A DNA stretch of 64,000 bases from a virus. The position numbers and the translations under genes were made by a program. The notes below the pieces were generated by a model, which was given only the letters and a program-made list of their open reading frames with translations, was not told where the DNA came from and ran no database searches. How positions within the stretch are numbered: the first letter of the stretch is position 1; each line of letters begins with the position of its first letter. Location of the stretch: the UHGV virus genome UHGV-0211740; one strand, 5' to 3'. This document shows positions 4,207-60,814 of this stretch, in pieces.

Positions 4207-4920
4207 TTAAATATACTCTGTTACATCCTTGAAGCTTGAAGGCTTCATAATCTTACCTTTGCTGTCAAGGAAGATGATAACCTTATTACCGTTGTAGAAT
4301 TCTTCTTTAGCAACAAAACCTTCATATCTACCATCGAAGCGTCGCTCAAGATCTTTAATCTCTAACTCTACAAGTTGTTCAACAGGCATATCTGCACTGG
4401 CACCGTGTGAATACCGTAGATGGTTGACCCGTGCAAACTTGCTGTCATTAGATTTGAGAACCTTCCGCATCATCCCGCACACATCACCGCGAAGCTGGAA
4501 TAGCAAAGCTGTTGACAACTCCGCCAGGCGGTAAGCAGAAGCTTTTTGCTTGGAGGTGTTTTTTGCAGCGATCAGTGTGTCATAGAACTCACCGATCTTA
4601 AACTTAAGACCTCGCGGATTATCAAACAGGTTTGACCACTTTTCATGATTATCATTAACAAGATAAGCGGCATAGCTTGTAACAACATGAAGATCGCAGG
4701 CCTCTTTTAGCAGATGATCTCCACCATCACCTTTCTCCAGCTCTTCCAAAACCTCATTAAACTCTTCCTCAATGAAGCTAAGTTGTAATTCGAATGGTGT
4801 GTATGATTTTTTCACTTTAGCTGCCACACGGTTCCAGTTTTCCACCCAGTTGGCAGACCAAAGGTAGTTTTCAGGTTGGGACAGTTTTTCCAGATTGTCA
4901 ATTAACTTAGTATTCAGCAT
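4207..4920 (-). CDS. putative MazG-like nucleotide pyrophosphohydrolase domain protein
   Basis: 237 aa; N-terminal acidic helices IEEEFNEVLEELEKGDGGDHLLKEACDLHVV resemble the paired E-x-x-E / D-L-L motifs of MazG-type NTP pyrophosphatases; tentative. Confidence 0.3.
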   Translation of the reverse strand: MLNTKLIDNLEKLSQPENYLWSANWVENWNRVAAKVKKSYTPFELQLSFIEEEFNEVLEELEKGDGGDHLLKEACDLHVVTSYAAYLVNDNHEKWSNLFDNPRGLKFKIGEFYDTLIAAKNTSKQKASAYRLAELSTALLFQLRGDVCGMMRKVLKSNDSKFARVNHLRYSHGASADMPVEQLVELEIKDLERRFDGRYEGFVAKEEFYNGNKVIIFLDSKGKIMKPSSFKDVTEYI

Positions 4921-4933
4921 TAAAGGTCTCCTT

Positions 4934-5695
4934 TTAAAGTTCCATGAAGTTTTCTACAGTTTCAATCAATGTTTTATCAGAGAAAGCGTCAACCGCACCG
5001 TTAAACCAAACAGGAATGCCGCGATCCTCATACTGGTAAATGTCACTACGTGAAATGCCATTCTCCTCCAAATGCTGTGAGTCATATTTGTTAACAATCA
5101 ACAGCTTAGTTCCCTTGTTACAGGCAGGGAACAGCTCCCAGTTAAAATTGATAACTGTGTTTGAGCACCCTACAAGGATAACCATATCATTGCTTGTCAG
5201 AGAAGTCAACAGATCATACATGTCTGTATACTTTGGAGCAACTTCTCCGAAGAACACCACATTAGGCTTAACCCAAATATACTCGCCTGCATCTACCTCC
5301 GAATACCCAATGTCTTTAATGACATTGCTTCCTTCATCGTCCTCATAGACTATTTCTGGCAAATACCCGTGGACATGTAAAATATCTTCATGTTTTACAC
5401 CAGCACGCTCTAGCAAATCATCTACATTGGTGGTCAGGTTGATCACACGACCAGACCAACGAGAATACCACTCTGCGATCCGGAGATGTGCAAGATTAGG
5501 CTCAACACTGCCCAAAGCTATACGCCGTGCATTGTAAAAGTCATGCACCTTATAATAGTTCTTGGCAAAGGTGTGGATGTTACACACCTCATCGATGCTG
5601 AAATTCTCCCACATTGCAGTGCTACCAGATCGAAAGGTGGGGATACCGGATTCAGCACTCAAGCCAGCACCAGAGATAACAATCAGTCGTCGCAT
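4934..5695 (-). CDS. Sir2-family (sirtuin-like) NAD-dependent protein
   Basis: 253 aa; Sir2 motifs in order: GAGLSAESGIPTFR, TTNVDDLLERAG, HVHG, VVFFGE, ILVGCS; no CxxC...CxxC zinc ribbon visible. Confidence 0.8.
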   Translation of the reverse strand: MRRLIVISGAGLSAESGIPTFRSGSTAMWENFSIDEVCNIHTFAKNYYKVHDFYNARRIALGSVEPNLAHLRIAEWYSRWSGRVINLTTNVDDLLERAGVKHEDILHVHGYLPEIVYEDDEGSNVIKDIGYSEVDAGEYIWVKPNVVFFGEVAPKYTDMYDLLTSLTSNDMVILVGCSNTVINFNWELFPACNKGTKLLIVNKYDSQHLEENGISRSDIYQYEDRGIPVWFNGAVDAFSDKTLIETVENFMEL

Positions 5696-45665: not shown

Positions 45666-45694
45666 TTGACTATTGTTACAAAATTTGGTAAAAT
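45666..45694 (+). promoter_or_regulatory. promoter with conserved TGGTAAAATA extended -10
   Basis: TTGACT (45666-45671), 17-nt spacer, TGGTAAAAT (45686-45694). Confidence 0.5.
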
Positions 45695-45727
45695 ACCTTG
45701 TAGAGATTTTCATACCGGAGGAGTGAA

Positions 45728-47229: not shown

Positions 47230-47916
47230 ATGGCAGAGATTAAGTCGGATGTCAACCACATCCACACTCTGCCAGATTTTGTTCAGGGAGGTCTTGACTA
47301 CCTGCCTGGAGATTTTCTGGCTGAGAAGGTTAATTTGGTCACATTCTTAACCGTGTACCTTAAAAGGTTGGAGGATGTTGATAAGATGCTGGTAGGTTTG
47401 GCTGAAGGAAGATTGCTTAACAATGCCAGCGGAAGATACCTTGACGAGGTAGGAAATCAGCTTGGCATTCTTAGGAACGGGCTTTCAGATGCCGATTTTC
47501 GTGCCACACTAATTATTCAGCAGGCAGCATCCTCAAGGGGTGGGACTAGAGAAGATGTCATCTCCACTTTGCGACAATTGTTCGGAAGAAATAATTTCGA
47601 TACGTGGAAAGGTGACAACTTCAGGTTTGACATAAATATTAGAAAAACTTGCTTTGATATACTGCAGTCTATCGATCAGATCTTAGATATGCTACCGCTG
47701 CCTTGCCATTTGCGGCTTACAGAGTCGCAGGGGCAAGCTTTTGGCTTTGAAGGGGACTCAACAGCTCTCGGTTTCGGATCAGTGTGGGAAGAAAACCAGT
47801 TCGGAGTTGGTGGATTGGCTACTTTATTGTACGTTCCTGACGTAAGACCTGATTGGGACACCACAACCATTTATTGTGAAAGTATTACAGTGAACGCAAC
47901 TAGACAGGAGGGTTAA
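47230..47916 (+). CDS. putative baseplate protein (P2 gpI-like)
   Basis: 228 aa; segment SRGGTREDVISTLRQLFG...W..DNFRFDINI resembles the gpI family block (KGT...V.EW...FRLDI) from memory. Confidence 0.45.
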   Translation: MAEIKSDVNHIHTLPDFVQGGLDYLPGDFLAEKVNLVTFLTVYLKRLEDVDKMLVGLAEGRLLNNASGRYLDEVGNQLGILRNGLSDADFRATLIIQQAASSRGGTREDVISTLRQLFGRNNFDTWKGDNFRFDINIRKTCFDILQSIDQILDMLPLPCHLRLTESQGQAFGFEGDSTALGFGSVWEENQFGVGGLATLLYVPDVRPDWDTTTIYCESITVNATRQEG

Positions 47917-49988
47917 TGGCAACAGCTATTTTTAAACCTTACCGTGATTACTCTACAATGGCTGCACGGTTTCATTACCGCACAGTTCAGGATACTGCCG
48001 TTCCAGGTAGGGATTATGATCATGTTGAGGGAGATGTAACTATTCCGGTTGGAGCAACCAGCATTGAGATCCCAGTAGAAATTGTTGACAAATTGCCCAA
48101 CAGGTTGCCAAGAAGCTTCTTCATGGAGTTTTCATCAGAGTCTCAAGGGGTGATGATCGGGACGCAAAAAGCAAAATGCACAATAGTCTCGGATGAGAAT
48201 CTTGACAGATTATCCTGGGATACTGTTGAGGAGAGAATGTTCCACCCAAGGTATTGGGTTACAACCACTCAACAAACTGAAAGTACCTGTATTGTTGCAG
48301 ATAACAACTGTTGTATTAACCGTTTGGTGTCAAGAACGTATGGGGGTATGGCAGGTTGCATTTGGGAAACAGTTGACAAGTATGACCATTTCGGTATTGG
48401 ATTTGATGATCATTATGAAATGAGAAACACCAAGCTTTGGTTCAGAATGTCAATAAACAACGCCACCAACTTCTCCACCCCTGAAAAGATGATTATGACT
48501 GTGGACCTTGTTGATGGCACAATCATCTATGTTCCTTTAGCTCAATATGCCGCCAGCATTTCAGAAGATAAAAATGTTGCAGAGATTCATATTGACTTTG
48601 AGGATTGCATTGGGATGGACCAGCACAACAACATGATGGGTGTTGATCCTCGGCAGGTGAGAAGGATTCTAATTCCGCTTATGCCTAAAGATTGGGTAAG
48701 CAACAGCACAGACCCAAGGACGGAAAATGTAGAGTGCGAGTTGCGCCTAGACCTGCTTCAGCCAGACACAGGCTGGAAAATGATGCAACTTAACAATATT
48801 CAGGTGAAAGAGCACGACGTCGGGATCTGCACTGCATATGATGATATGTGGAACGTATCACCTTTGAGAGTGTTGAACAATATTAAGCGTTTGGGCTACA
48901 CGGGGATCATAAATCACTATGTTGGGATGAGTCATTACTATGACTACACGTGGACTGGTACTCAATGGTCTATAAACAAAACAGGGGCCTTGAACGCAGC
49001 AGCTTATAAATGGCATGATGACTTTATGTATAATGCCAAACAGCATGGCTTCGAGGTTATGCAATCTGTAAGTTTTGAGCTTTACAGTGATGCCTGCCCG
49101 TTAGAATGGACCCAAAGAGATTGGAATGATAACTATGCTAAAACAGGGTACACCCCTTGCAGCTACCTTCTATCTCCGACCATTGAAGAGGGTATGAATT
49201 TCCTTACGGCAGTGTTTAAGAATTTTGCATCGGCAGCTATGCGAAACAATCTGCCAGTGATTATGCAGATCGGGGAGCCGTGGTGGTGGTTCAACACCGA
49301 CACTCGTAAACCTTGTATTTATGATTATCCTACAAAACAAGCGTTTTATGACGAGACTGGAGAATATGCGCTAGATATTGGAACTATTGACGATCCTAAA
49401 ACTGGCGGGGTTTACGACAAGTATGTAGCATTTTGTCGTGGCAAGCTCGGAGCTCGTATTGCAGCCATTTCAAAAGCAATCAAGGCACACGCTGCATCGG
49501 CTCAGATGACAGCTTTGCTGTTTTTCCCAACCATTATGGAAACCGAGCTTACGCAGAAACTGAACCTTGCTGACCAATATAAAAAGGAAGCAGGAGCTCT
49601 TGATTTCTTCTGCACTGAGTGCTACGATTGGGTGATGCAGGGCGGTATTGAAAAGGCAAAAGAGTCTGTAAACATACCTATCGTTAAGTTAGGTTGGCAA
49701 CCGTCTGAAATACAATACCTTGCAGGGTTCGTTCCTAGTAAAGAGCTTGCTCCGGTATATGGCTACGACCCAACCAGGAATTACCAAGAATTTTTATGGA
49801 GATGTATTTGCGGAAACATGGCAACCATAGAGTATAGATACCCTGAGGTAAAACAGTATGTGTGGGCATACCCACAAGTGATGTCTGATAGTATTACTGT
49901 TACTGCCAGGGAGTCTACTGTGCTTCATATGGGGCAGGTTGCTCTGAAAGGGTATGTAGAAGATGTTGTTCCGCCAGACTTCTCATAA
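47916..49988 (+). CDS. putative tail fibre / baseplate-attached enzyme-like protein
   Basis: 690 aa in the position P2 gpH occupies after J and I; Cys/Trp/Tyr-rich body suggests a globular, possibly enzymatic, domain; assignment is positional. Confidence 0.35.
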   Translation: MATAIFKPYRDYSTMAARFHYRTVQDTAVPGRDYDHVEGDVTIPVGATSIEIPVEIVDKLPNRLPRSFFMEFSSESQGVMIGTQKAKCTIVSDENLDRLSWDTVEERMFHPRYWVTTTQQTESTCIVADNNCCINRLVSRTYGGMAGCIWETVDKYDHFGIGFDDHYEMRNTKLWFRMSINNATNFSTPEKMIMTVDLVDGTIIYVPLAQYAASISEDKNVAEIHIDFEDCIGMDQHNNMMGVDPRQVRRILIPLMPKDWVSNSTDPRTENVECELRLDLLQPDTGWKMMQLNNIQVKEHDVGICTAYDDMWNVSPLRVLNNIKRLGYTGIINHYVGMSHYYDYTWTGTQWSINKTGALNAAAYKWHDDFMYNAKQHGFEVMQSVSFELYSDACPLEWTQRDWNDNYAKTGYTPCSYLLSPTIEEGMNFLTAVFKNFASAAMRNNLPVIMQIGEPWWWFNTDTRKPCIYDYPTKQAFYDETGEYALDIGTIDDPKTGGVYDKYVAFCRGKLGARIAAISKAIKAHAASAQMTALLFFPTIMETELTQKLNLADQYKKEAGALDFFCTECYDWVMQGGIEKAKESVNIPIVKLGWQPSEIQYLAGFVPSKELAPVYGYDPTRNYQEFLWRCICGNMATIEYRYPEVKQYVWAYPQVMSDSITVTARESTVLHMGQVALKGYVEDVVPPDFS

Positions 49989-50000
49989 TCAGGAGATAAA

Positions 50001-51041
50001 ATGTCAAAACCTAGTTTTCCATTAGAGATTTGGGCAGAGGAGGATCAGGTTCTGCCTAACACCCACAGACAGAACAGGCTGCGCCCGATTGATGATTTGT
50101 GGAGAAAAGGTTGGGATCTTGGTCAAAAGCCCTCATGTGAAGAGCTTAACTATATTTTTAATATGCTTGGAACTTGGGCAAAATATATTGCTGACGAGCA
50201 GATCCCCGCTCAAGAAGGTCGCTATCTGGTACGGGATAATAACTTGAGCGATCTTTTGAACATCCCTGTTGCCCGTAAAAACCTTGGGATTATTACTAAG
50301 GAAGAGGCAGATGCCCGGTATGTAAAAGTTACAGGGGATACAATGACAGGCCCTTTAGGTCTGCAACGTATCAACTTTAAAGCTGCCGAGACGGACAAGG
50401 CTTGGATAGAGACAACCATTGGTCCAGACAAGACAACTCTTGATTTTGGTTTGAGTGACAATACAGGGTCGTTCGATGATGGTGGAACATCTACAGTAGA
50501 CGCATTCCGCTGGAGATTTCAACCAACTCAGCCGGACATTAACCCTGAGTTTACCTTGATGTACCTGAATGCCATCACAGCTAACCGTGCACTGCTGAAA
50601 GTGATAGGTAATGTTGAAATTGTAGACAACATGAGGTGCAATAACCTTACCATTACCAGCACAGCAACATTCACCAACTGCAATGTGGGAAGCCAGTTAA
50701 CTACAGGGTCACTGTATGTCAATGGAGGCACCAGCTGCGATAGTTTGGTTGTGAGAAGTCAGCACTGTGTTGTTGGTAACCGAAATGTGGTCCGCTCTGT
50801 GAACGGTGTAACCGCCAACGGCAACGGCGATGTGACGATCACTATTCCGCAAACAGGTGTGCAAGACATCAGAATTGGTGCAAGACTTGTTGACGGTGTT
50901 TCTGAATCTCCAGTCCGCAATGGCTACGTTGTCACAGGATGGCATTTTGGTGATAAAAAAGAAATGCGTGGTTCAACTTACTGGGCAGGACCTTTACAAA
51001 AACTTGTAAACGGTCAATGGATCACTGTTAATTATGCGTAG
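50001..51041 (+). CDS. short tail fibre protein (paralog A)
   Basis: 346 aa; classic fibre motif VTGDTMTGPLGLQR; N-terminal 60 aa and C-terminal 20 aa (YWAGPLQKLVNGQWITVNYA) conserved with the 52056 paralog. Confidence 0.55.
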   Translation: MSKPSFPLEIWAEEDQVLPNTHRQNRLRPIDDLWRKGWDLGQKPSCEELNYIFNMLGTWAKYIADEQIPAQEGRYLVRDNNLSDLLNIPVARKNLGIITKEEADARYVKVTGDTMTGPLGLQRINFKAAETDKAWIETTIGPDKTTLDFGLSDNTGSFDDGGTSTVDAFRWRFQPTQPDINPEFTLMYLNAITANRALLKVIGNVEIVDNMRCNNLTITSTATFTNCNVGSQLTTGSLYVNGGTSCDSLVVRSQHCVVGNRNVVRSVNGVTANGNGDVTITIPQTGVQDIRIGARLVDGVSESPVRNGYVVTGWHFGDKKEMRGSTYWAGPLQKLVNGQWITVNYA

Positions 51042-51055
51042 ATCGGAGGACTAGC

Positions 51056-51640
51056 ATGAAAATACTTCAAGAGTTTAAGCTTTACCAGCCAGGATCTGGC
51101 GAATACTCCGCCAATGAGGAAACCAAAGAGTTGACCCCTCAAGAGGTTGAGGATTACACTGCATACACAGGGTATTTTTTACGTAATGATGATGGAGATT
51201 GGTATGTGCAGTCCAGAACATTACGACAAGAAAACCCAGGGTGTATCTTCCTACTTGTTGACGAGAAGGGTATTCTTAAGACATCTACAGAAGAGCCTGA
51301 TGCCTTATGGCCTGCTCCAGGTCTTCGTGTGGTTATCGCCAAAAAAGAAGAGGTACCAGAAAACATTATGCTCCACCACGACGCTTTGCGTTTAGTTGGT
51401 GATGAATTTGTCACAGATAATGAATTCTTTGTTCAACAGGCAGAGGGTGTCATAGAGACAGAACTTGCTTGGGCTACTGCTAGAATTGGTGCCTATCAAG
51501 ACATGATTGACCTTGAATATGATCTTACTGATGACCAAAAACGCAACATCAGAGATTTGAAAATGTACAGGGTAAAACTTCTTGAAATAGATACATCTAA
51601 AGCCCCTGACATTTTCTTCCCGGAACGACCTACCCTCTAA
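51056..51640 (+). CDS. tail fibre assembly protein (Tfa-like chaperone)
   Basis: 194 aa; C-terminus LKMYRVKLLEIDTSKAPDIFFPERP fits the tail-fibre-assembly family ending (W..YR..L...D...AP.I.WP..P) recalled from lambda Tfa / Mu U. Confidence 0.55.
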   Translation: MKILQEFKLYQPGSGEYSANEETKELTPQEVEDYTAYTGYFLRNDDGDWYVQSRTLRQENPGCIFLLVDEKGILKTSTEEPDALWPAPGLRVVIAKKEEVPENIMLHHDALRLVGDEFVTDNEFFVQQAEGVIETELAWATARIGAYQDMIDLEYDLTDDQKRNIRDLKMYRVKLLEIDTSKAPDIFFPERPTL

Positions 51641-51651
51641 GAGGAGGTGTT

Positions 51652-51966
51652 GTGGAGTTGGATTTGGCGGCGTTGTACGGTATCTGCATGGGTACCGTTG
51701 TCCCGATCTGTGTATGGGCTTTCAACCAGTGGCACACCAAATGGAAAGGTATTTCCAAGAGGTTGGATGAGCTGGAGAAAGACCTCATCCTAGTGAAAAA
51801 TAGCATGGTTACAAAAGATAGACTTGATTCCATTATCGAGACCCGGTTAAGTAAGCTAGAGGCCGATATTAACGACCTTAAGCAAGATGTCAGAACAGAT
51901 GTCTCCGGTATCCGAGCTGACGTGCAAAAGATTTTGCACATGCTTGTAGAGCATAGTAAAAGGTAA
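51652..51966 (+). CDS. small membrane protein (holin or superinfection-exclusion candidate)
   Basis: 104 aa, GTG start with GAGGAGG RBS; one N-terminal transmembrane segment (LAALYGICMGTVVPICVWAF) followed by a coiled-coil-like region. Confidence 0.35.
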   Translation: MELDLAALYGICMGTVVPICVWAFNQWHTKWKGISKRLDELEKDLILVKNSMVTKDRLDSIIETRLSKLEADINDLKQDVRTDVSGIRADVQKILHMLVEHSKR

Positions 51967-51996
51967 ACAAAGGTCAGGACGGAAAGGACTCCGTTC

Positions 51997-52025
51997 TTGC
52001 ATTTTGTTCTCTAAAGTGTTAAAAT
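51997..52025 (+). promoter_or_regulatory. sigma70-like promoter with extended -10
   Basis: TTGCAT (51997-52002), 17-nt spacer, TGtTAAAAT (52017-52025). Confidence 0.4.
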
Positions 52026-52055
52026 AGTCCTAAGGAATTTTCTCAGGAGAACGTG

Positions 52056-53099
52056 ATGGCTAAACCAGTTATCCCTCTTGATATTTGGGCCAATCAGGAT
52101 GTTGTGCTTGAAAATACAGGAGAGTTGAATAAGTCTCAACCAAAAAAAGAAGAGAGACTGAAAGGTTGGGATATGACACAAAGGGTGGCATGTGAAGTTG
52201 TTAACTTTGAACTTCACATGCTCTCTGCGTGGTTAAGACATTTAACAGAAGATGTTATTCCAGGGTGGGATAATAGATTTTTAAGGGTTACCAATAATCT
52301 AGCAGACGTTCCAGACAAAGCTGCTGCACGCCAAGTCCTCAATGTATACTCCCCTGAAGAAATGGACGACCTATATGTTGACAAATCTGGGGACACAATG
52401 ACCCAAACTCAAACTTTAGGTCTTCAAAGAATACAGTTCGCATCTGCGTCCACAGATAGTGCGGCAATATATACCACTATAACTCCAGACAAGACGCTGA
52501 TGGATTTCTGGATTATGGACAATATTGGTGGTGCAGACGGTGCAGATCTTGATGATTCTTCTAATCAAATAGATGGGTTTCGTTGGAGATTCCAGCCTTC
52601 TGGTGGACAGCCTGTATTTTCTGCCATGAAGCTTAATGCTATAACTGCCAATCGTGCAAGACTGGCTATTCAGGGGAATCTTGAATGCAACGACGCAAAA
52701 AGTTCCTCTGCAAATGCTAATGCGGTCACGATACCAAGAGCTACCGTCAATGGACAACAATCTTGCGGTAATGCCCAAGTTGGTGGAAGATTGGATTGTA
52801 ATGATGGAACTGTACGAGGTCAGTATTCGATAGTCGGCGGTAGAAACGTGGTTCGTAGGGTGAACGGTAATAGTGCAGACAGCAGCGGTAACCTTACTAT
52901 TCCTATGCCAAGTAGGGGAGTTGACGATGTAAGGATAGCAAACCGCTTCAGAACCACCTACAGAGAATCAAGAGTCTACGTAGGACATGTAATGTGTTCT
53001 GGTAATTACGCTTACAAACACCCATATCAAGGCGACTATTGGACAGGTGCTATCCAAAAACTTGTAAACGGTCAATGGATCACTATATCTTATGCTTAA
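52056..53099 (+). CDS. short tail fibre protein (paralog B)
   Basis: 347 aa from ATG 52056 (AGGAGA RBS); motif KSGDTMTQTQTLGLQR; termini conserved with paralog A, centre divergent. Confidence 0.55.
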   Translation: MAKPVIPLDIWANQDVVLENTGELNKSQPKKEERLKGWDMTQRVACEVVNFELHMLSAWLRHLTEDVIPGWDNRFLRVTNNLADVPDKAAARQVLNVYSPEEMDDLYVDKSGDTMTQTQTLGLQRIQFASASTDSAAIYTTITPDKTLMDFWIMDNIGGADGADLDDSSNQIDGFRWRFQPSGGQPVFSAMKLNAITANRARLAIQGNLECNDAKSSSANANAVTIPRATVNGQQSCGNAQVGGRLDCNDGTVRGQYSIVGGRNVVRRVNGNSADSSGNLTIPMPSRGVDDVRIANRFRTTYRESRVYVGHVMCSGNYAYKHPYQGDYWTGAIQKLVNGQWITISYA

Positions 53100-53110
53100 A
53101 AAGAGGGTAA

Positions 53111-53377
53111 ATGAAACTAACTCAGTTTTTATGGGGACTGGTTGCGGCATCTGATGACCCTACAAAAGTGTCCCAATCTAAGCTATGGTCGAACATCGGC
53201 ATGGCAGTGATGACTGGGGTGTTTATTCACATGGGGTACAATGATACACTTCCTGAATGGTATGCGTGGATATACGCACCATCGGTAGCCTGTCCCCAGC
53301 TTATTAGCAAATTCATCTCGCTCCGGTGGGGTTGCCAGCACCCTGACCACGTTAAAAGCGAAGAGCAAAAAGCTTAA
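53111..53377 (+). CDS. small membrane protein (holin or exclusion candidate)
   Basis: 88 aa with two hydrophobic segments (IGMAVMTGVFIHMGY and WYAWIYAPSVA); lies between fibre genes. Confidence 0.35.
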   Translation: MKLTQFLWGLVAASDDPTKVSQSKLWSNIGMAVMTGVFIHMGYNDTLPEWYAWIYAPSVACPQLISKFISLRWGCQHPDHVKSEEQKA

Positions 53378-53386
53378 GGAGAAATC

Positions 53387-55132
53387 ATGGCGCAAGACAT
53401 GACAAGCTTCGAGCAGGCGGTAGATCAAGTAATTGTGGATTCTGAACGTCTGCACTTGGTTGTCAACGGTAACGCTGTGGATGAAGTTGTCGTAGAGGAT
53501 GGTACCACCATCCCTACGGTACGGAAAGCCATGCTTGACAACCTTTATTTTAAAACGCCACCGATTCCTTGGGCGTACGGGGCATCCACAACAGTTTTTA
53601 ACCAACTTTATGAGTTTAAAGGTGACACAGGTCCTCAGTGGTGGTACGCGCCTGCGGCATCAAAAGCTAATCCGGTTAGAATGCCAGCAGACCCTTCACA
53701 ATCTGCAAACTGGAGATTGTATACCGACTCTGCAGTAATGGCAAAGTACTATGCAAAACTTAACAGCCCGAGGTTTGAAGGTGACCCGCGAGTACCTACA
53801 CCTCCAATGGATGATAAGTCAGAGTCTATAGCAAACACGGAGTTTGTTGTTGACTACGTGGATAGTATATTTGAAGCTATGGAGGGGATGAAAGTTACCG
53901 TAGGTTCTTTGGTGGTAAAAGGTCTTTCAGAGCTTGCCAATACCATAGTTGGAGGGACTCTTACCTTACAAGGGCCTGTCAACGGAGCAGACTCTACGGC
54001 ACGCTTCAGAAACCTAATCCTCACGGCAAATACTTCTACACTTACCTTCGCTTGGAGCGATCCTAAGCATACGGACTGGAAAAGCACAGAACTGCAGCCT
54101 CACGAGGTGTCAACGCACAGGGTTATAGCTGACACTATAACATCTGGAAAACCTGTGGCAAACAACAATGATGTGCATTTTAATGGTCTTGGAAACAACT
54201 TCTTTGACTATGTGTATATCCGTGGTAATGCCATGAAGGCGGCGACCGAACCAACACTGCAGGTTGATGGTATCACCAGGGTTAAAAACCTGGAAGTGAC
54301 AGGCACTGTTACAGGGATAACCTACTCTGTTGATGGCACCATGATTTACCCTAGCTACATCGAAAGCACAGGGGATGCACTGATCAATGGAGATTTAGAG
54401 GTTGGCGGGGCAATAGTTATTCGTGGTACAGCCTCTGTGCAGAACTTGTCCTTAAACACTCTGAGTGTGAACGAGCGTGCCACTTTTGAAGGAGAAGGAA
54501 TTACAGCCAATAAGGGTGCAATTACCTCCCTGACTGCCACCACTTTAACGGCAACAACTGCAAACGCTGAAAACTGCAACGTTAGCAGAAACTTGCAAGT
54601 TAATGGGGATGTGAGTTTGAACGCAGCAGGGACTGGAACTACCTACCTCCACAACCTTGAAATATCAGGTGCCGTCACCGGGTGGTTGCCAGACTTCTCT
54701 AATGTTAACTTTGTCTGTAATGGTATCAACTCTAGTGGTAAGATAACCACCTCTCAAGGAATTGAGGCTGGTAAAACTATCACTGCCCCTGCTTTCCACG
54801 CAGGAAAAGTAGACTTTGACTTAGAAGAGGTTGATGCATCCAGTGGGACATGGACACCTAACGGGCAGGCCAATATGTATGTTGTCCACGCAAAAGGTGA
54901 CTTTACAATAGGTCAGTGGCCTGGAACATCGGCTGAAGATAAACCTTACCCGTTCACTGCAATCATCTATGTCATTCAGGATGCTGTAGGTCACAACGTG
55001 ACTTTACACGATAAGTATGCCATCTTGTCGGCAACGCCTGTTATTAACAACAAGGCCAACAGCGTCACCTTACTACAATTGACATATTGTGGTGTTGGTG
55101 ATATTGTGGATGTGGTTATTGCACAACGTTAA
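53387..55132 (+). CDS. tail fibre protein
   Basis: 581 aa; fibre-type N-terminal motif (DPRVPTPPMDDKSESIANTEFV) and long Gly/Thr/Asn-rich beta-type repeats. Confidence 0.55.
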   Translation: MAQDMTSFEQAVDQVIVDSERLHLVVNGNAVDEVVVEDGTTIPTVRKAMLDNLYFKTPPIPWAYGASTTVFNQLYEFKGDTGPQWWYAPAASKANPVRMPADPSQSANWRLYTDSAVMAKYYAKLNSPRFEGDPRVPTPPMDDKSESIANTEFVVDYVDSIFEAMEGMKVTVGSLVVKGLSELANTIVGGTLTLQGPVNGADSTARFRNLILTANTSTLTFAWSDPKHTDWKSTELQPHEVSTHRVIADTITSGKPVANNNDVHFNGLGNNFFDYVYIRGNAMKAATEPTLQVDGITRVKNLEVTGTVTGITYSVDGTMIYPSYIESTGDALINGDLEVGGAIVIRGTASVQNLSLNTLSVNERATFEGEGITANKGAITSLTATTLTATTANAENCNVSRNLQVNGDVSLNAAGTGTTYLHNLEISGAVTGWLPDFSNVNFVCNGINSSGKITTSQGIEAGKTITAPAFHAGKVDFDLEEVDASSGTWTPNGQANMYVVHAKGDFTIGQWPGTSAEDKPYPFTAIIYVIQDAVGHNVTLHDKYAILSATPVINNKANSVTLLQLTYCGVGDIVDVVIAQR

Positions 55133-55141
55133 TATATCTGA

Positions 55142-55166
55142 CCGCTCCTGACGGGGCGGTTTTCTT
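55142..55166 (+). terminator. terminator-like hairpin
   Basis: CCGCTCC-TGAC-GGGGCGG hairpin then TTTTCTT. Confidence 0.45.
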
Positions 55167-58100: not shown

Positions 58101-60814
58101 AAACTTTAGGTAACGCTGTCGACCCCTATATCATCATGAGTGATCTAAGATCGAACATGGATGGAACATCCATATCTATGCAAGTTCCGGTAACAAACGG
58201 ATACAAGCGTGTTGTGATGATCATTAAGTGCGATCTGATAGGTAAGCAAGTTCTTGCAGAGAACGGAACTTCCACCCACCTATTTGAGACTGCTCTGCAC
58301 TATCAGTTTGCTGATTCCCCTTTTGCAGGGGATAAGAGAATATCTGACACAGACGCTGTGCGATGCAAGAAATTTATGCTAGGTGGTGGGTGGTGGTGGT
58401 ATGAATTTGACTTAACAGACAAATTCACCGACACGTCTAAAGTAGTGACGGGGCTTCGTCTAGACCTTGGCGAAAACATGCACAAAAGTGTTTGTGATGG
58501 CACCTACGGTGACCCAACAATCTACTTAAAGTATGTCTCTTTTGAGCACCCAGAGGATGTTGTTTATGGTCCAAAACTGAGACTGTTTGGCAATTGGATT
58601 GCTAAAGACAGGGTAGGTATGGGCAAGAAGGTAAGAGGTTTCTTAATGGATGCCGGTACAGAGGACATGCTAGTTAATGCAGTGTGGCCTGAATTACCCG
58701 GAACTCAGTGGAACAACTCCGCTAAATCTATAAACTGGTTCAATATCCACAGGGCTATGTGGACAACCAACTGTTATCTGTGGAAAGAGCTGAATGACGG
58801 CGCTTTCGGGTTCACAGGTGGCAGAAGAATGGCAATCATTTGCTGGACAACGTTGCAAAGATGTTATGAACATGACTACGAGATTGGAGGTAGGGCATGG
58901 AAAAATATTAGGGATAGAATCATAACCAACTTTGCAGATCCTAACGGTGGTGGAGCGTATGGCTTTGACTGCAGCAGGCTCATCCATTTGAACGGATCCT
59001 CTGCCTACAAGAAAGAAGGTTACTCTGGGTCTATGATAGAATGGGGCCTGGTGAAAGATGCTCGCGTGCTGATGGGTCAACAACTTGCTGCTGCAATAGG
59101 TCCTAATGCAGTGCAATCTGTTAAACCTGCGTGGTTTGATATCCCATTGTGGTCATCCGGTACACCAGGGACCGCTGCAATCAACCCGACCACGGGGGAT
59201 CTGGAAATATCTTGGGAGGACTTGAAGCAGGTTGGAGGCTGGGATAAAACAGGGTATCAGGTTCAGTGGTGGAGGGCTGACGGATCTTTAGCTGCTGATG
59301 AGTTTGTTAAGGACAACTTCTACACCATGTCCTCTGCAAAAGCACAGCAACTGTTTGGTCAGGCTACTCCGTCAACGATTACCATGTCCATGTGCTGTAA
59401 AGACAACAGGACTGGAGCTTTGGGGCCAAGGGTTGCTAAAGTTTTCTCAGGTATTAAATGGAATCTCCCTGTTCAAAGTGTTTCATGGAAGCAAATAGGT
59501 GATAACAAGCTACTAGTTACTCCTGCCTGCCAGTTCAACGCAACCCTCAACGTTGATCCGGCTGTTGCAGCAAACTCAGCTAAAGCTTCTGACTTCTCTG
59601 TGTCTAACACTGCCATGGCAGATGTGAGAAAGATTGATACACTGAATGCCAGAATTACCTGTAAAAACACTTACGGCACATTCCAGATCATCAACAACTT
59701 CACAGATACTGATTCTAAGGTAGTGAGGACAGCAAGCCAGACTATGCAGTTGGGAACTCTGGCATACTCTGCCCTGATCACTGAACAATCTCCTACCCTT
59801 CAGGGTGGAGGTGTTGGTAAGTTGATCACAACACCTGTGTGGAAGCCAAATGAGTGGGTTGTGTTTGATTTGACTGTAGACTTCTCCAGTGACAATAACT
59901 GGACATGGGTAAGGAATTGCTTGTCACAGTTGATGGGTGGTCCAAGCTCTGTTAGTGATAGCCACGACTCTACGGACCCGAGCGTGTTCCAGGTGGGTAA
60001 AACTCATCCAGAAACTGGGGCACAGTTGCCTGACAGGAAGTATGCTTTGGTTTGCATCTCCAACGGCAAGGCAGATGTAACCTTCTCAGGGACACACGCA
60101 TATAACGGCACTTACAACTTCTCTAAAAAGTACAGCCTCAAGGCAGGTAACATTGTAGATGAAGTTGGTGCGTTGTATAATCCAGGTAACGGCATAGGGA
60201 TTGTGGGTGGTAAACTGCAGATGCAGGAACCTTCTATTACCCCTTCCAATGTGCCAGGGATTAGAAAGACTTGGGAAAGTAGTAATACTAACATTGCAAC
60301 AGTGGATGCTACCACAGGATTGGTAACATTTAAAGCCCCTGGTAATGTCACTATAAAGTTTGTAGTTACGGATGATGCAGGCCGCAAAACGTCTTCAACA
60401 TCTTTCACTGTAAGACAGATGGCACCTCAGTGGAGAATGTGGATAGGCACAGCAACAAACGGGGCATACCCTAATCCGGCAGGGACTTCTGGTATGAAGA
60501 CTTTCTCTACAAGCAAGCCGATGGAGTACGGCAGCGGTCCTAAGGTAGGGCAGATGGTGTACTTTGGTGCATATATTCCTGAAATTATAGGGCTTCCGAG
60601 AAGTCAGCTTCAGTTGCTGTTTGGGGCTGGTGTTGACGATCTTGCCACTTTCGGGTATAGCGACAACATCGAGGCTGCAAGAAGTTCAGGATGGGTAGGG
60701 TTCAGAATGGAGTCTGGAAAGGAAGGCAGGATTCTAGGGACAGCCTCTATAGGTGTTATGTTCCCTGGTGACCAGCAGTATCGTCTGGGAGCCTACGCAA
60801 CTTTCTCTCTTTAG
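55181..60814 (+). CDS. giant virion-associated protein (putative adhesin/fibre) with beta-propeller-like N-terminus and Ig-like C-terminal region
   Basis: 1877-aa uninterrupted ORF; N-terminal repeats of the type G.N..G.LG (RCC1-like impression); near C-terminus a segment (NTNIATVDATTGLVTFKAPGNVTIKFVVTDDAGRKTSSTSFTVR) resembling bacterial Ig-like group 2 domains. Confidence 0.5.
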   Translation: MLPIPLLKLGRHFLDKRGGVKELAVLSYPIDNSDGTSTTVAYVNSLAILFDNGQLNITGYNRFGECRTGDLDTINYPNEAAWNVDHVWRADRAFVIRTFDNQFFYIGCTAGLIGSDAAGGNDVCVREWTPLPEQIVKGLHLDTHPERLVEVMGGINNTVWVMAEAEGTGILHLYGSGNNTYGSLHVDKNQHATPVKIGETSENPETGPWKNPSINCEVHDNSVIFGGPRGFWIAGYDFLRNNSRNDLVWPPAQITRDDLRGIPADEEWKGFMCGPNGAVVVTQRMHRPDDQQLVNVFYGQNIWGDDTWRSLNLTYTHEVIMARGYGTSGIFFNNGTKQYRGFSRNLCNDIGAQSANNSPRDNFIHYQALATAKYVEQRLPVSWTESVYFQGIHREGFLGTFTVVNGKLWWSGIPRGSFAGSNNLFGGRLNSQGFTEVPENWYKNVPVDSWDIEDIFDVNGVSSVSNIYIGDTVKMKLKPQPEGATFIIDKIELVNAAGTVVTDANYQFSTNWNHGGANEVIVTQYNRNVNRRGLYSVKITYHDKHGTGRTHTTRTLNWNTIVPAYPSNGKWHTVGRNKQFHVNDTVYFGLNGTQPAVEGDTSYMVRLHRMDAGSVTYDVTQEIYDQRRNTYNNLVQTQALWEFNPNGRGGKMLQVNEQNGTSLTVHEHSDPWPDPGKPHPGARTLKIVSHDVGYFGIRWEATVRYADGTTNNIGITLGGTSEDNSLKIAYTPRGISIDNMDVVRNGYGDVNIKVTLGEHLGGERIIMYAFDHDPRTNGTYANQAWSYLISAPEPNTKEFYYGMKRDVCKKTGTHDWIAICVKDERTAWDEPVNRWFIGIPTRSDKYVEEYIVCMGGTNLNMCWNEDANKYSDYDYMRDYSCNQWFNQTGYANRQSRVNPAIFTDTQVFLTKQANEVQTFKNNYDPNKWFYNCYGAFFWGPGELPGGGSCFEAATYASDRFMGQVKKYKIIPGPETLGNAVDPYIIMSDLRSNMDGTSISMQVPVTNGYKRVVMIIKCDLIGKQVLAENGTSTHLFETALHYQFADSPFAGDKRISDTDAVRCKKFMLGGGWWWYEFDLTDKFTDTSKVVTGLRLDLGENMHKSVCDGTYGDPTIYLKYVSFEHPEDVVYGPKLRLFGNWIAKDRVGMGKKVRGFLMDAGTEDMLVNAVWPELPGTQWNNSAKSINWFNIHRAMWTTNCYLWKELNDGAFGFTGGRRMAIICWTTLQRCYEHDYEIGGRAWKNIRDRIITNFADPNGGGAYGFDCSRLIHLNGSSAYKKEGYSGSMIEWGLVKDARVLMGQQLAAAIGPNAVQSVKPAWFDIPLWSSGTPGTAAINPTTGDLEISWEDLKQVGGWDKTGYQVQWWRADGSLAADEFVKDNFYTMSSAKAQQLFGQATPSTITMSMCCKDNRTGALGPRVAKVFSGIKWNLPVQSVSWKQIGDNKLLVTPACQFNATLNVDPAVAANSAKASDFSVSNTAMADVRKIDTLNARITCKNTYGTFQIINNFTDTDSKVVRTASQTMQLGTLAYSALITEQSPTLQGGGVGKLITTPVWKPNEWVVFDLTVDFSSDNNWTWVRNCLSQLMGGPSSVSDSHDSTDPSVFQVGKTHPETGAQLPDRKYALVCISNGKADVTFSGTHAYNGTYNFSKKYSLKAGNIVDEVGALYNPGNGIGIVGGKLQMQEPSITPSNVPGIRKTWESSNTNIATVDATTGLVTFKAPGNVTIKFVVTDDAGRKTSSTSFTVRQMAPQWRMWIGTATNGAYPNPAGTSGMKTFSTSKPMEYGSGPKVGQMVYFGAYIPEIIGLPRSQLQLLFGAGVDDLATFGYSDNIEAARSSGWVGFRMESGKEGRILGTASIGVMFPGDQQYRLGAYATFSL

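Follow-up and report, generated by a model that had tools for sequence, protein, structure and literature searches.

Two short tail fibre paralogues and a candidate lysis gene in the short-tail-fibre block of an rV5-like phage

In the rV5 paper (2013), the fibre proteins gp30 and gp33 were reported to be 42.3% identical, gp30, gp32, and gp33 were detected in virions by mass spectrometry, and recognition of two lipopolysaccharide (LPS) chemotypes was proposed (PMC3606486). [quoted passage not shown] In the cryo-electron microscopy model of the phiTE short fibre, residues 3–92 form a joint that binds wedge proteins (PMC11972413). There is no agreed holin for the rV5-like group in the literature: the LL12 genome paper states that no holin could be identified with certainty, and the proposals made so far are rV5 gp129 (PMC3606486), a different gene in the BASEL paper, and two unnamed small proteins in BME3. 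Here we describe positions 50001–53377 of a 64,000-nucleotide stretch of virus genome UHGV-0211740 (the whole stretch is called the window), which carry two short tail fibre genes (STF1 and STF2), a tail fibre assembly chaperone gene (Tfa), and genes for two small membrane proteins (gp31 and gp29). The fibre duplication, the single chaperone, and the idea of two LPS chemotypes are already known, having been published in 2013 and 2021. New are a difference between genera in having either STF2 or a membrane protein gene (here called X) at one position, the fibre tips as the exchangeable module, and the lysis-cassette context of phrog_1322, the family of gp29.

The locus is almost certainly the short-tail-fibre block of a virulent Vequintavirus (rV5-like) myophage. 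The whole 3.4 kb is spanned at 90–99% DNA identity by 117 phage records, nearly all of them Vequintavirus coliphages; the DNA of this isolate is ~92% identical to that of most relatives and 98.6% identical to that of EcoIv14a_Aya. Gene by gene and with the order kept, it corresponds to rV5 gp33-gp32-gp31-gp30-gp29, and the locus proteins are 94–99% identical to those of rV5. The five open reading frames (ORFs) called in a first-pass annotation of this DNA were confirmed at their coordinates, each with a strong Shine-Dalgarno sequence:

50001–51041, + strand: STF1, 346 amino acids, orthologue of rV5 gp33
51056–51640, + strand: Tfa, rV5 gp32, tail fibre assembly chaperone
51652–51966, + strand: gp31, 104 amino acids, small membrane protein
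52056–53099, + strand: STF2, 347 amino acids, ATG at 52056, rV5 gp30
53111–53377, + strand: gp29, 88 amino acids, small membrane protein

The last gene of the block, gp29, is the strongest candidate for the missing holin of rV5, or for a holin partner. Its product matches phrog_1322 (E=5e-32) and no other PHROG. A profile search of 1.84 billion representatives yielded 72 gp29 relatives, and a pattern scan of IMG/VR, built from a 7-sequence alignment, yielded 231, from which 80 loci were kept; the IMG/VR family ORFs all match phrog_1322 at E=1e-17 to 1e-25. Members of the family share a SHTKxWxN core, a 20-residue helix, a second short hydrophobic helix, and a SKFxxLRYG motif, and have a long, variable, and highly charged C-terminal tail; some have an additional strong N-terminal transmembrane domain (TMD). 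In many unrelated phages the family gene lies between endolysin and spanin genes, and the gene order in four phages with the family gene after the endolysin is as follows:

Pseudomonas phage Bise: Mor, M15 endolysin, phrog_1322, i-spanin with embedded o-spanin, TMD-plus-coiled-coil protein, Mu gp26 homologue, terminase
Ralstonia phage RS138: endolysin, phrog_1322, Rz-like spanin with embedded o-spanin
Pseudomonas phage Dolphis: hol-like protein, GH19-like endolysin, phrog_1322, two small genes
Ralstonia phage RP13: holin-like gene, GH108 endolysin, phrog_1322, Rz-like genes

The embedded o-spanins of Bise and RS138 carry a lipobox, and the endolysins of all four phages are soluble, with no N-terminal hydrophobic segment. 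In at least 28 of the 80 IMG/VR loci the peptidoglycan hydrolase gene ends 4 nucleotides (nt) inside the phrog_1322 gene, and an i-spanin-like ORF occurs downstream of the family gene in the representative loci inspected. The adjacent hydrolases were assigned by Pfam to Peptidase_M15_4, M15_3, Amidase_2, Amidase_3, and GH108 (the last in RP13), and by PHROG or BLAST alone to GH19-like (Pfam below cut-off), lambda-R-like, and RS138-type transglycosylase enzymes, such that at least seven endolysin catalytic types adjoin phrog_1322 genes. Constancy of a small membrane protein beside an enzyme that changes from phage to phage is what characterizes a holin-type lysis gene. Bise and RS138 have no other membrane gene between Mor and the soluble endolysin. 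Since phrog_1322 occurs in the lysis cassettes of so many unrelated phages, gp29 is most likely to be a late-expressed lysis protein. We consider a lysis function of gp29 reasonably probable from this genomic context, and its being the holin proper a nearly balanced question that tips slightly to the negative. As holin or as a tightly coupled holin partner, gp29 would let the soluble endolysin (1701–2171) reach the cell wall. The suggestion in the first-pass annotation that this gene might be the missing holin or antiholin thus gains support.

Several observations weigh against this assignment. The two hydrophobic segments that had been noted in gp29 are present, but they are weak (two 19-mers with Kyte-Doolittle (KD) values of 1.0–1.05), and typical holins have stronger ones; neither TMHMM nor Phobius gave a TMD for gp29 in the rV5 paper (PMC3606486). 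The AlphaFold2 model of gp29, from a 14-sequence alignment, is poor (pLDDT 58), with a 20-residue helix at 22–41. The gp29 gene is distant from the endolysin gene in Vequintavirinae, as it is in the window, and in Menderavirus and Busanvirus the family gene adjoins the DNA polymerase gene, with no recognizable lysis or late context. RP13 and Dolphis have another holin-like gene before the endolysin, so that phrog_1322 could be an antiholin or accessory protein, like P2 LysA, which has the same place in its cassette. Pfam searches with gp29 and its homologues gave nothing up to E=10, and the name DUF2644, given to one gp29 homologue by one source, was not reproducible. PDB sequence searches with gp29, gp31, and Tfa returned chance matches only, and metagenome contigs with distant gp29 relatives were too short to be informative on gene context.

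In divergent Vequintavirus-like lineages (L015 6076–6432; proteins P0004–P0013) the gp29 homologue is 113–126 amino acids long with an unchanged core, and the extra length is a 30–40-residue tail rich in Tyr, Asp, Arg, and Ser.

The transcriptional signals around the locus place gp29 among late genes. The late-promoter core TGKTAAAATA has five matches in the window, all on the + strand, as compared to 0.5 expected by chance. The signals that delimit the fibre genes are as follows:

45686–45695, + strand: late-promoter core TGGTAAAATA, upstream of the baseplate wedge gene; corresponds to rV5 P036 (rV5 Table S4)
51976–52007, + strand: terminator-like hairpin (51976–51997) with T-run, from a terminator scan; lies between gp31 and STF2 and closes the STF1-Tfa-gp31 unit
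52003–52039, + strand: late promoter P030, core TGTTAAAATA at 52017–52026; sequence identical to predicted rV5 P030 (Table S4)
55140–55161, + strand: intrinsic terminator (rV5 t028), from a terminator scan; listed in rV5 Table S4

The core TGGTAAAATA at 45686–45695 is predicted to mark the start of a unit comprising the wedge gene, gp35, gp34, STF1, Tfa, and gp31. With a terminator and P030 before STF2 and t028 after the next fibre gene, gp28, the genes STF2, gp29, and gp28 form a separate late unit. Both the TTGCATTTT tail of the hairpin at 51976 and the P030 core are kept in two divergent metagenomic lineages (L013 and L015). Late transcription of gp29 is a prediction only, made from its place between P030 and t028 with two fibre genes.

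The other known lysis genes of the window are these, together with an ORF adjoining the endolysin gene:

1701–2171, − strand: endolysin, soluble, no N-terminal hydrophobic segment; in JohannBauhin the gene in syntenic position, beside that for DNA ligase, is annotated as endolysin (bas53_0204)
1431–1637, − strand: 68-amino acid ORF directly downstream of the endolysin; N-terminal hydrophobic segment with KD 2.7; phrog_4641
12851–13285, + strand: i-spanin, upstream of the large terminase gene; annotated spanin in JohannBauhin
13282–13569, + strand: o-spanin with lipobox LLCGC, upstream of the large terminase gene; annotated spanin in JohannBauhin

Being soluble, the endolysin would need a holin to reach the periplasm. 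The positions of endolysin and spanins mean that the lysis genes are dispersed in the genome; spanins have also been reported in the LL12 and CB7 papers. The large terminase gene and the endolysin region are interrupted or flanked by HNH/zinc-finger-like ORFs (14153–14803 and 738–1241 (−)), in line with the introns and homing endonucleases that have been reported from rV5-like phages.

The real holin might instead lie elsewhere (a gene of the rV5 gp129 type, bas53_0113, which BASEL lists as a putative holin, or the 68-amino acid ORF), with gp29 and gp31 acting as antiholins or accessory lysis-timing factors. Strongly hydrophobic two-TMD proteins do exist in these phages (bas53_0167, with KD 2.4/2.5 and a charged C-terminus, and bas53_0113), published proposals name such genes, and proteins of the gp129 type (75–78 amino acids, two strong TMDs) are encoded beside a putative glycosidase. 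The first-pass annotation had stated that no holin or antiholin is next to the endolysin; taken as a statement on small membrane proteins this is wrong, given the hydrophobic 68-amino acid ORF. These proteins count against gp29 as holin, as does the RP13 and Dolphis arrangement with a holin-like gene before the endolysin and phrog_1322 after it. However, the gp129- and bas53_0113-type genes belong to a small-gene block (~88–103 kb) that has host-type TTGACA/TATAAT promoters in the rV5 promoter table, which suggests early expression, whereas confirmed holins are late genes (PMC9239132). The product of the 68-amino acid ORF is unlike a holin, its N-terminus being signal-like and its soluble part Cys-rich, and in Bise and RS138 no further membrane gene separates Mor from the soluble endolysin. 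We therefore regard a holin elsewhere as unlikely, although well worth keeping in mind. A role for gp31 and gp29 as inner-membrane assembly factors for the folding or attachment of the short fibres or baseplate seems more doubtful still. Such a role would fit their strict synteny with STF and Tfa in Vequintavirinae, phi92-like phages, and Aeromonas Plateaulakevirus, their co-transcription with fibre genes, and their not being detected in virions when, in CB7, structural neighbours were (CB7 Tfa was likewise undetected). It fits poorly with a gp29 family that occurs in lysis cassettes of Mu-like siphophages and myophages with no fibre gene nearby, and with a gp29-like gene set apart from STF in phi92-like phages; to our knowledge, no fibre chaperone is an integral membrane protein.

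Superinfection exclusion or receptor masking that protects infected cells or progeny, as by T5 Llp, T1/phi80 Cor, or T4 Imm, is far less probable than either; the Llp/Cor type had also been put forward for the two small proteins in the first-pass annotation. The genes cor and llp do adjoin receptor-binding genes, the PHROG category of phrog_1322 is moron/host takeover, and in Moby and ACP17 the family gene is near the DNA polymerase gene, the region of T4 imm. Exclusion genes are early, however, and gp29 and gp31 are in late fibre operons with late promoters; neither protein has a lipobox or signal peptide; both genes are conserved across genera with different hosts and receptors; phrog_1322 is embedded in lysis cassettes elsewhere; and the receptor is an LPS/ECA glycan, which a small inner-membrane protein could not mask. 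A relationship of gp29 to T4 Imm was rejected, as T4 Imm matches phrog_1039 rather than phrog_1322 and its gene flanks gene 43 on the opposite side. Llp/Cor-type masking is unlikely, and a late lysis protein remains our preferred reading of gp29.

Two further hydrolase genes of JohannBauhin were observed. Just downstream of a putative glycosidase, in the small-gene region outside the window, is a 75-amino acid protein that has two strong TMDs and whose C-terminus is charged (103229–103456 and 103487–104011; L008 7230–8012), making a second holin-plus-hydrolase-like pair. A SleB-like putative cell wall hydrolase is encoded upstream of rIIA/rIIB (58269–58769; L007 11270–11770) and has a signal-peptide-like or signal-anchor-release (SAR)-like N-terminus (MKIKIFAIILSALLSLPVVAAP). 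It could be a secreted second muralytic enzyme, and could partner a releasin-like protein.

Comparison with other genera places both small genes in a conserved context. Seunavirus-like R7, Mydovirus KpS8, Certrevirus CB7, and Aeromonas Plateaulakevirus have the order STF, Tfa, gp31-like, X, gp29-like, next fibre. Protein X (~155 amino acids, 4–5 TMDs, phrog_7451), encoded between the gp31-like and gp29-like genes, was located at the following positions:

L012 (Aeromonas phage 2L372X), ~4495–4935: X
L009, 4500–4973: X
L010, 4505–4978: X
L005, 5519–5977: X

The X ORF is unannotated in the Aeromonas phage 2L372X record. X was not found in Vequintavirus or in the phi92-like loci examined; in Vequintavirus, its position is taken by the terminator, the late promoter, and STF2. 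The gp31-like gene comes after Tfa in six genera, and still does so in phi92-like phages and phAPEC8, where the gp29-like gene is instead upstream of the wedge gene. The conservation of both small genes across genera with different hosts indicates that gp31 and gp29 are core genes rather than morons. STF2 may have come with its own late promoter into the position that X has in the sister genera, where X is part of a conserved three-gene membrane set with the gp31-like and gp29-like proteins. In CB7, neighbouring structural proteins were confirmed by tandem mass spectrometry, whereas Tfa and the three membrane proteins were not. The rV5 virion mass-spectrometry supplement has no gp29 or gp31 peptides among those searched, which is weak evidence as it lists 19 proteins. 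gp31 and gp29 would accordingly appear to be neither virion parts nor morons.

The gp31 protein (phrog_5345, E=1e-48) has one clear hydrophobic segment (residues 5 to 23–24, KD 1.9), preceded by four residues and followed by about 78 charged residues. The first-pass annotation described one TMD plus a coiled coil; the TMD is clear, and the coiled coil corresponds to a heptad-like helix judged by eye. Homologues have an acidic N-terminus of 4–12 residues, one TMD, a cluster of four K/R, and a charged helical domain of ~75 amino acids. Because every homologue has this acidic N-flank and K/R C-flank, the positive-inside rule predicts an N-out/C-in topology, which is the reverse of that of the phage's own i-spanin. 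The gp31 gene was rejected as an i-spanin gene for this reason, and also because no lipobox ORF overlaps it and the true spanins are at 12851–13569.

The predicted topology of gp31 resembles that of Mu releasin gp25, but gp31 has no significant homology to any lysis protein, which weighs against a lysis role. It has no match to Pfam DUF2730, and against phrog_736 (releasin) the R7 homologue reached E=0.0099 and the window protein E=0.12. Homology of the gp31 family to Mu gp25, Dolphis gp36, and the Bise phrog_462 protein could not be demonstrated, with hhalign probabilities of 1–2% (2% for Mu gp25), leaving architecture as the shared feature. Relatives of gp31 match phrog_462 at E=5.7e-7 to 0.018, and the phrog_462 protein in the Bise lysis cassette sits where Mu carries gp25. 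gp31 may be a membrane-tethered cytoplasmic helical protein of releasin architecture that modulates a lysis step. That it is a lysis regulator is possible but doubtful, and its role in lysis control is a lead, not a finding.

Mu-like cassettes with phrog_1322 also encode a small one-TMD coiled-coil protein (RS138 L023 6026–6247; Bise L022 5704–5982), whose TMD is C-terminal (XhlA-like) in RS138 and N-terminal (phrog_462) in Bise.

A joint reading of these observations can be offered tentatively, at somewhat less than even confidence. phrog_1322 would be an unrecognized but widespread holin family whose partners are endolysins of at least seven types that can replace one another. In large myophages of the rV5-like, phi92-like, and related groups it would have moved into the late fibre operon with the releasin-like gp31 and X, coupling the lysis clock transcriptionally to fibre synthesis, and in Vequintavirus the middle gene would have been replaced by STF2 with its own late promoter. 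The broader explanation, a Vequintavirus fibre block with lysis-related small genes, is the one we favour overall, with fair though far from complete confidence.

The two fibres themselves are paralogues, as the first-pass annotation had recognized. STF1 and STF2 are 43% identical end to end (E=3e-94), and both match phrog_4465 (E=1e-170 and 6e-162, respectively). The annotation had further described conserved ends, namely an N-terminal stretch of about 60 and a C-terminal stretch of 20 amino acids, around a divergent centre. Identity along STF1 is distributed differently:

Residues 1–60: 43.3% identity to STF2, equal to the overall mean
Residues 61–326: 40.6% identity to STF2
Residues 106–200: 53.5% identity to STF2, the best-conserved stretch, central
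Residues 201–250: 24% identity to STF2, among the least conserved
Residues 301–326: 27% identity to STF2, among the least conserved
Last 20 residues: 75% identity to STF2, truly conserved

The C-terminal conservation thus stands, and the conserved N-terminus and divergent centre do not. The last 62 nt (82% identical) are the only DNA similarity between the two genes detectable by blastn. Most of the genera sampled have the C-terminal motif LQ..VNG.W.T in their short fibres, and so does the phiTE fibre of solved structure; the Aeromonas Plateaulakevirus fibre lacks it. Its sharing by most genera indicates a family-wide constraint rather than a recombination flank, and the final ~20 residues common to both fibres (..LQKLVNGQWIT..) are likely to be a determinant for folding or for the chaperone.

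From this pattern the annotation had proposed alternative receptor specificities arising by cassette recombination, a model here taken to mean that recombination acts between the conserved ends and that the fibres are interchangeable or swapped among isolates. The shared last 20 amino acids and 62 nt would suit such a model, as would a tip conversion between paralogues in one metagenomic lineage (see below). Nevertheless, cassette variation is not seen across the 117 records, in which the locus is 90–99% identical. STF1 is 96.5% identical to rV5 gp33 and STF2 94.2% identical to rV5 gp30; against rV5 and JohannBauhin together, protein identities of 96.5% and ~94% exceed the DNA identity of ~89–90%, which indicates purifying selection on the fibres. 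Nor are the fibres alternatives, since rV5 virions contain both (PMC3606486). Each copy keeps its own anchor type across lineages, the part best conserved between the copies is central, and no invertase or inverted repeats were noticed in the region, as judged from gene content with no dedicated scan. The cassette model is largely refuted, and we give it very little credence.

The fibres are more readily described as an N-terminal anchor, a shaft, and a C-terminal tip. The phiTE short tail fibre (PDB 9CUY, chain c) is matched by residues 1–108 of STF1 (E=1.6e-19) and by STF2 (E=4.2e-9), and a profile of the fibres matches 9CUY over residues 1–112 (E=7.8e-30). Residues 1 to ~105 of STF1 appear to be the N-terminal baseplate anchor. 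At the other end, STF1 residues 286–343 match residues 440–501 of Mu tail fibre protein S (PDB 5YVQ; E=3.6e-6), although the family profile did not recover 5YVQ; the STF2 tip had no match to Mu S in a PDB sequence search. The last 60 amino acids of STF1 and STF2 are 45% identical, and the anchors are 38% identical over 90 amino acids.

Two copies of phrog_4465 were found only in Vequintavirus records. A distance tree groups STF1 and STF2 as sister clades, and the single fibres of Seunavirus-like and Mydovirus phages fall outside them. The lineages L013 and L015 are Vequintavirus-like with unchanged gene order; window STF1 is 88% and 74% identical to their STF1, respectively, and window STF2 77% and 49% identical to their STF2. 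STF2 is the faster-evolving copy, a Vequintavirus-specific paralogue with its own anchor and tip type, and STF1 appears to be the ancestral copy; it is the positional orthologue of the single short fibre of the sister genera. The anchor third of the L015 STF2 is 60–63% identical to that of window STF2 and 41% to that of STF1, and it is the anchor third that defines which paralogue a fibre is. The C-terminal third of the same protein is 75% identical to that of L015 STF1, with the last 269 nt 75% identical in DNA. Similarly, the window STF1 tip is 57–58% identical to the tips of Seunavirus-like and phi92-like fibres, even though the phi92-like anchor is only 32% identical. The tip conversion in L015 and the mismatch between tip and anchor identity in phi92-like fibres indicate that modular exchange exists, and that the exchangeable module is the C-terminal tip (the last ~60 residues) and not the centre.

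The single chaperone gene follows the first fibre only, as annotated, beginning 14 nt past the STF1 stop codon. Its product matches Pfam Caudo_TAP (PF02413; 45.8 bits against a cut-off of 22.1, E=8e-12) and phrog_136 (E=3e-36), and would serve both STF1 and STF2. Co-variation of Tfa type with tip type was too weak to claim. Display of two fibres with different tips on one particle, served by one chaperone, is likely. STF1 and STF2 are old paralogues, and both are built into the virion according to the published rV5 proteomics. Their differing anchor types make it probable that they dock at different baseplate sites, and their differing tip types that the particle reads two LPS-core variants, as first proposed in 2013. 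The alternative receptor specificities of the first-pass annotation therefore remain plausible because the tips are of different types, and not on account of a cassette pattern with divergent centres. Against this, all tested Vequintavirus require the same LPS glucose (PMC8594841), and different fibre specificities are for that reason unproven.

The block is flanked on the 5' side by the baseplate wedge gene, gp35, and gp34, and on the 3' side by the gp28 fibre gene and gp27, which encodes 1877 amino acids. The adjacent gene on that side is:

53387–55132, + strand: gp28 tail fibre, phrog_4549; starts 10 nt after gp29

Orthologues of gp28 carry Pfam Phage_phiTE_241_N and Phage_phiTE_241_C. In gp34 (47916–49988), a Calx-beta domain is combined with two domains known from the non-contractile tail sheath protein gp65 of N4, the N-terminal one and the TIM-barrel (Pfam E=5e-80); a protein of this type has recently been tied to ECA/NGR glycan recognition. 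Between 16 and 21 GenBank records titled Campylobacter phage (C. jejuni host, MG0656xx series) have ~92% DNA identity across the fibre locus, and their host assignment looks doubtful.

Phages like rV5 are among the coliphages that are isolated, and used for therapy and biocontrol, most often, yet the published account of their lysis system has gaps. What is most valuable in the first-pass annotation is the holin idea, and for gp29 it now has specific, testable support: a candidate taken from genomic context reduces the missing-holin question to a one-gene experiment. If the candidate is correct, several hundred genes for hypothetical or membrane proteins in Mu-like and large myophages would be annotated. 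The fibre result is mostly a correction of the cassette reading; for host-range engineering, the targets it points to are the C-terminal tip and the fast-evolving STF2.

Among known systems, the short tail fibre locus of rV5 and the BASEL Vequintavirus phages has late promoter P030 and terminator t028 as in the window, with no substantive difference. The phiTE short tail fibre (PDB 9CUY/9MJN) is homologous over its N-terminal ~110 residues, which in phiTE form a trimeric joint on the baseplate wedge, and its C-terminal ..IQKKVNGVWVTI motif is common to the window fibres. However, the phiTE fibre is a single-copy protein of 554 amino acids with a coiled coil and Ig-like domains, whereas the window has two copies of 346 and 347 amino acids with different shafts and tips. 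In relation to Mu S and its chaperone U (PDB 5YVQ), the STF1 tip may be Mu-S-like and the window Tfa carries a Caudo_TAP domain. Unlike Mu, which has an invertible G segment, the window has none; both fibres would be expressed, with a single chaperone for both.

The Mu releasin gp25 has 99 amino acids, four periplasmic residues, and a 73-amino acid cytoplasmic domain (PMC9239132). With this DUF2730 protein gp31 shares, by prediction only, an N-out/C-in TMD, four outside residues, a basic junction, and an acidic helical cytoplasmic domain of ~78 amino acids. It differs in genomic position, being not within five genes of the endolysin gene; the endolysin is encoded ~50 kb away and is soluble rather than a SAR endolysin. 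P2 LysA is a membrane protein encoded between endolysin K and the lysB/lysC spanin genes, with the P2 holin Y upstream. phrog_1322 genes likewise follow the endolysin and precede the spanins in their cassettes, and are likened to LysA by position alone; Bise and RS138, unlike P2, lack a separate holin. The putative two weakly hydrophobic helices and the charged tail of gp29 would resemble class II holins of the pinholin type (S21 68), although gp29 has no sequence similarity to T, gp17.5, or S21 (no Pfam match). Holin genes that follow fibre genes are known from T4 (t, behind gene 38) and T7 (17.5, behind gene 17), and gp29 is likewise a late small membrane protein gene right after a fibre gene and far from the endolysin. 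As in the window, the spanin genes of T7 adjoin terminase.

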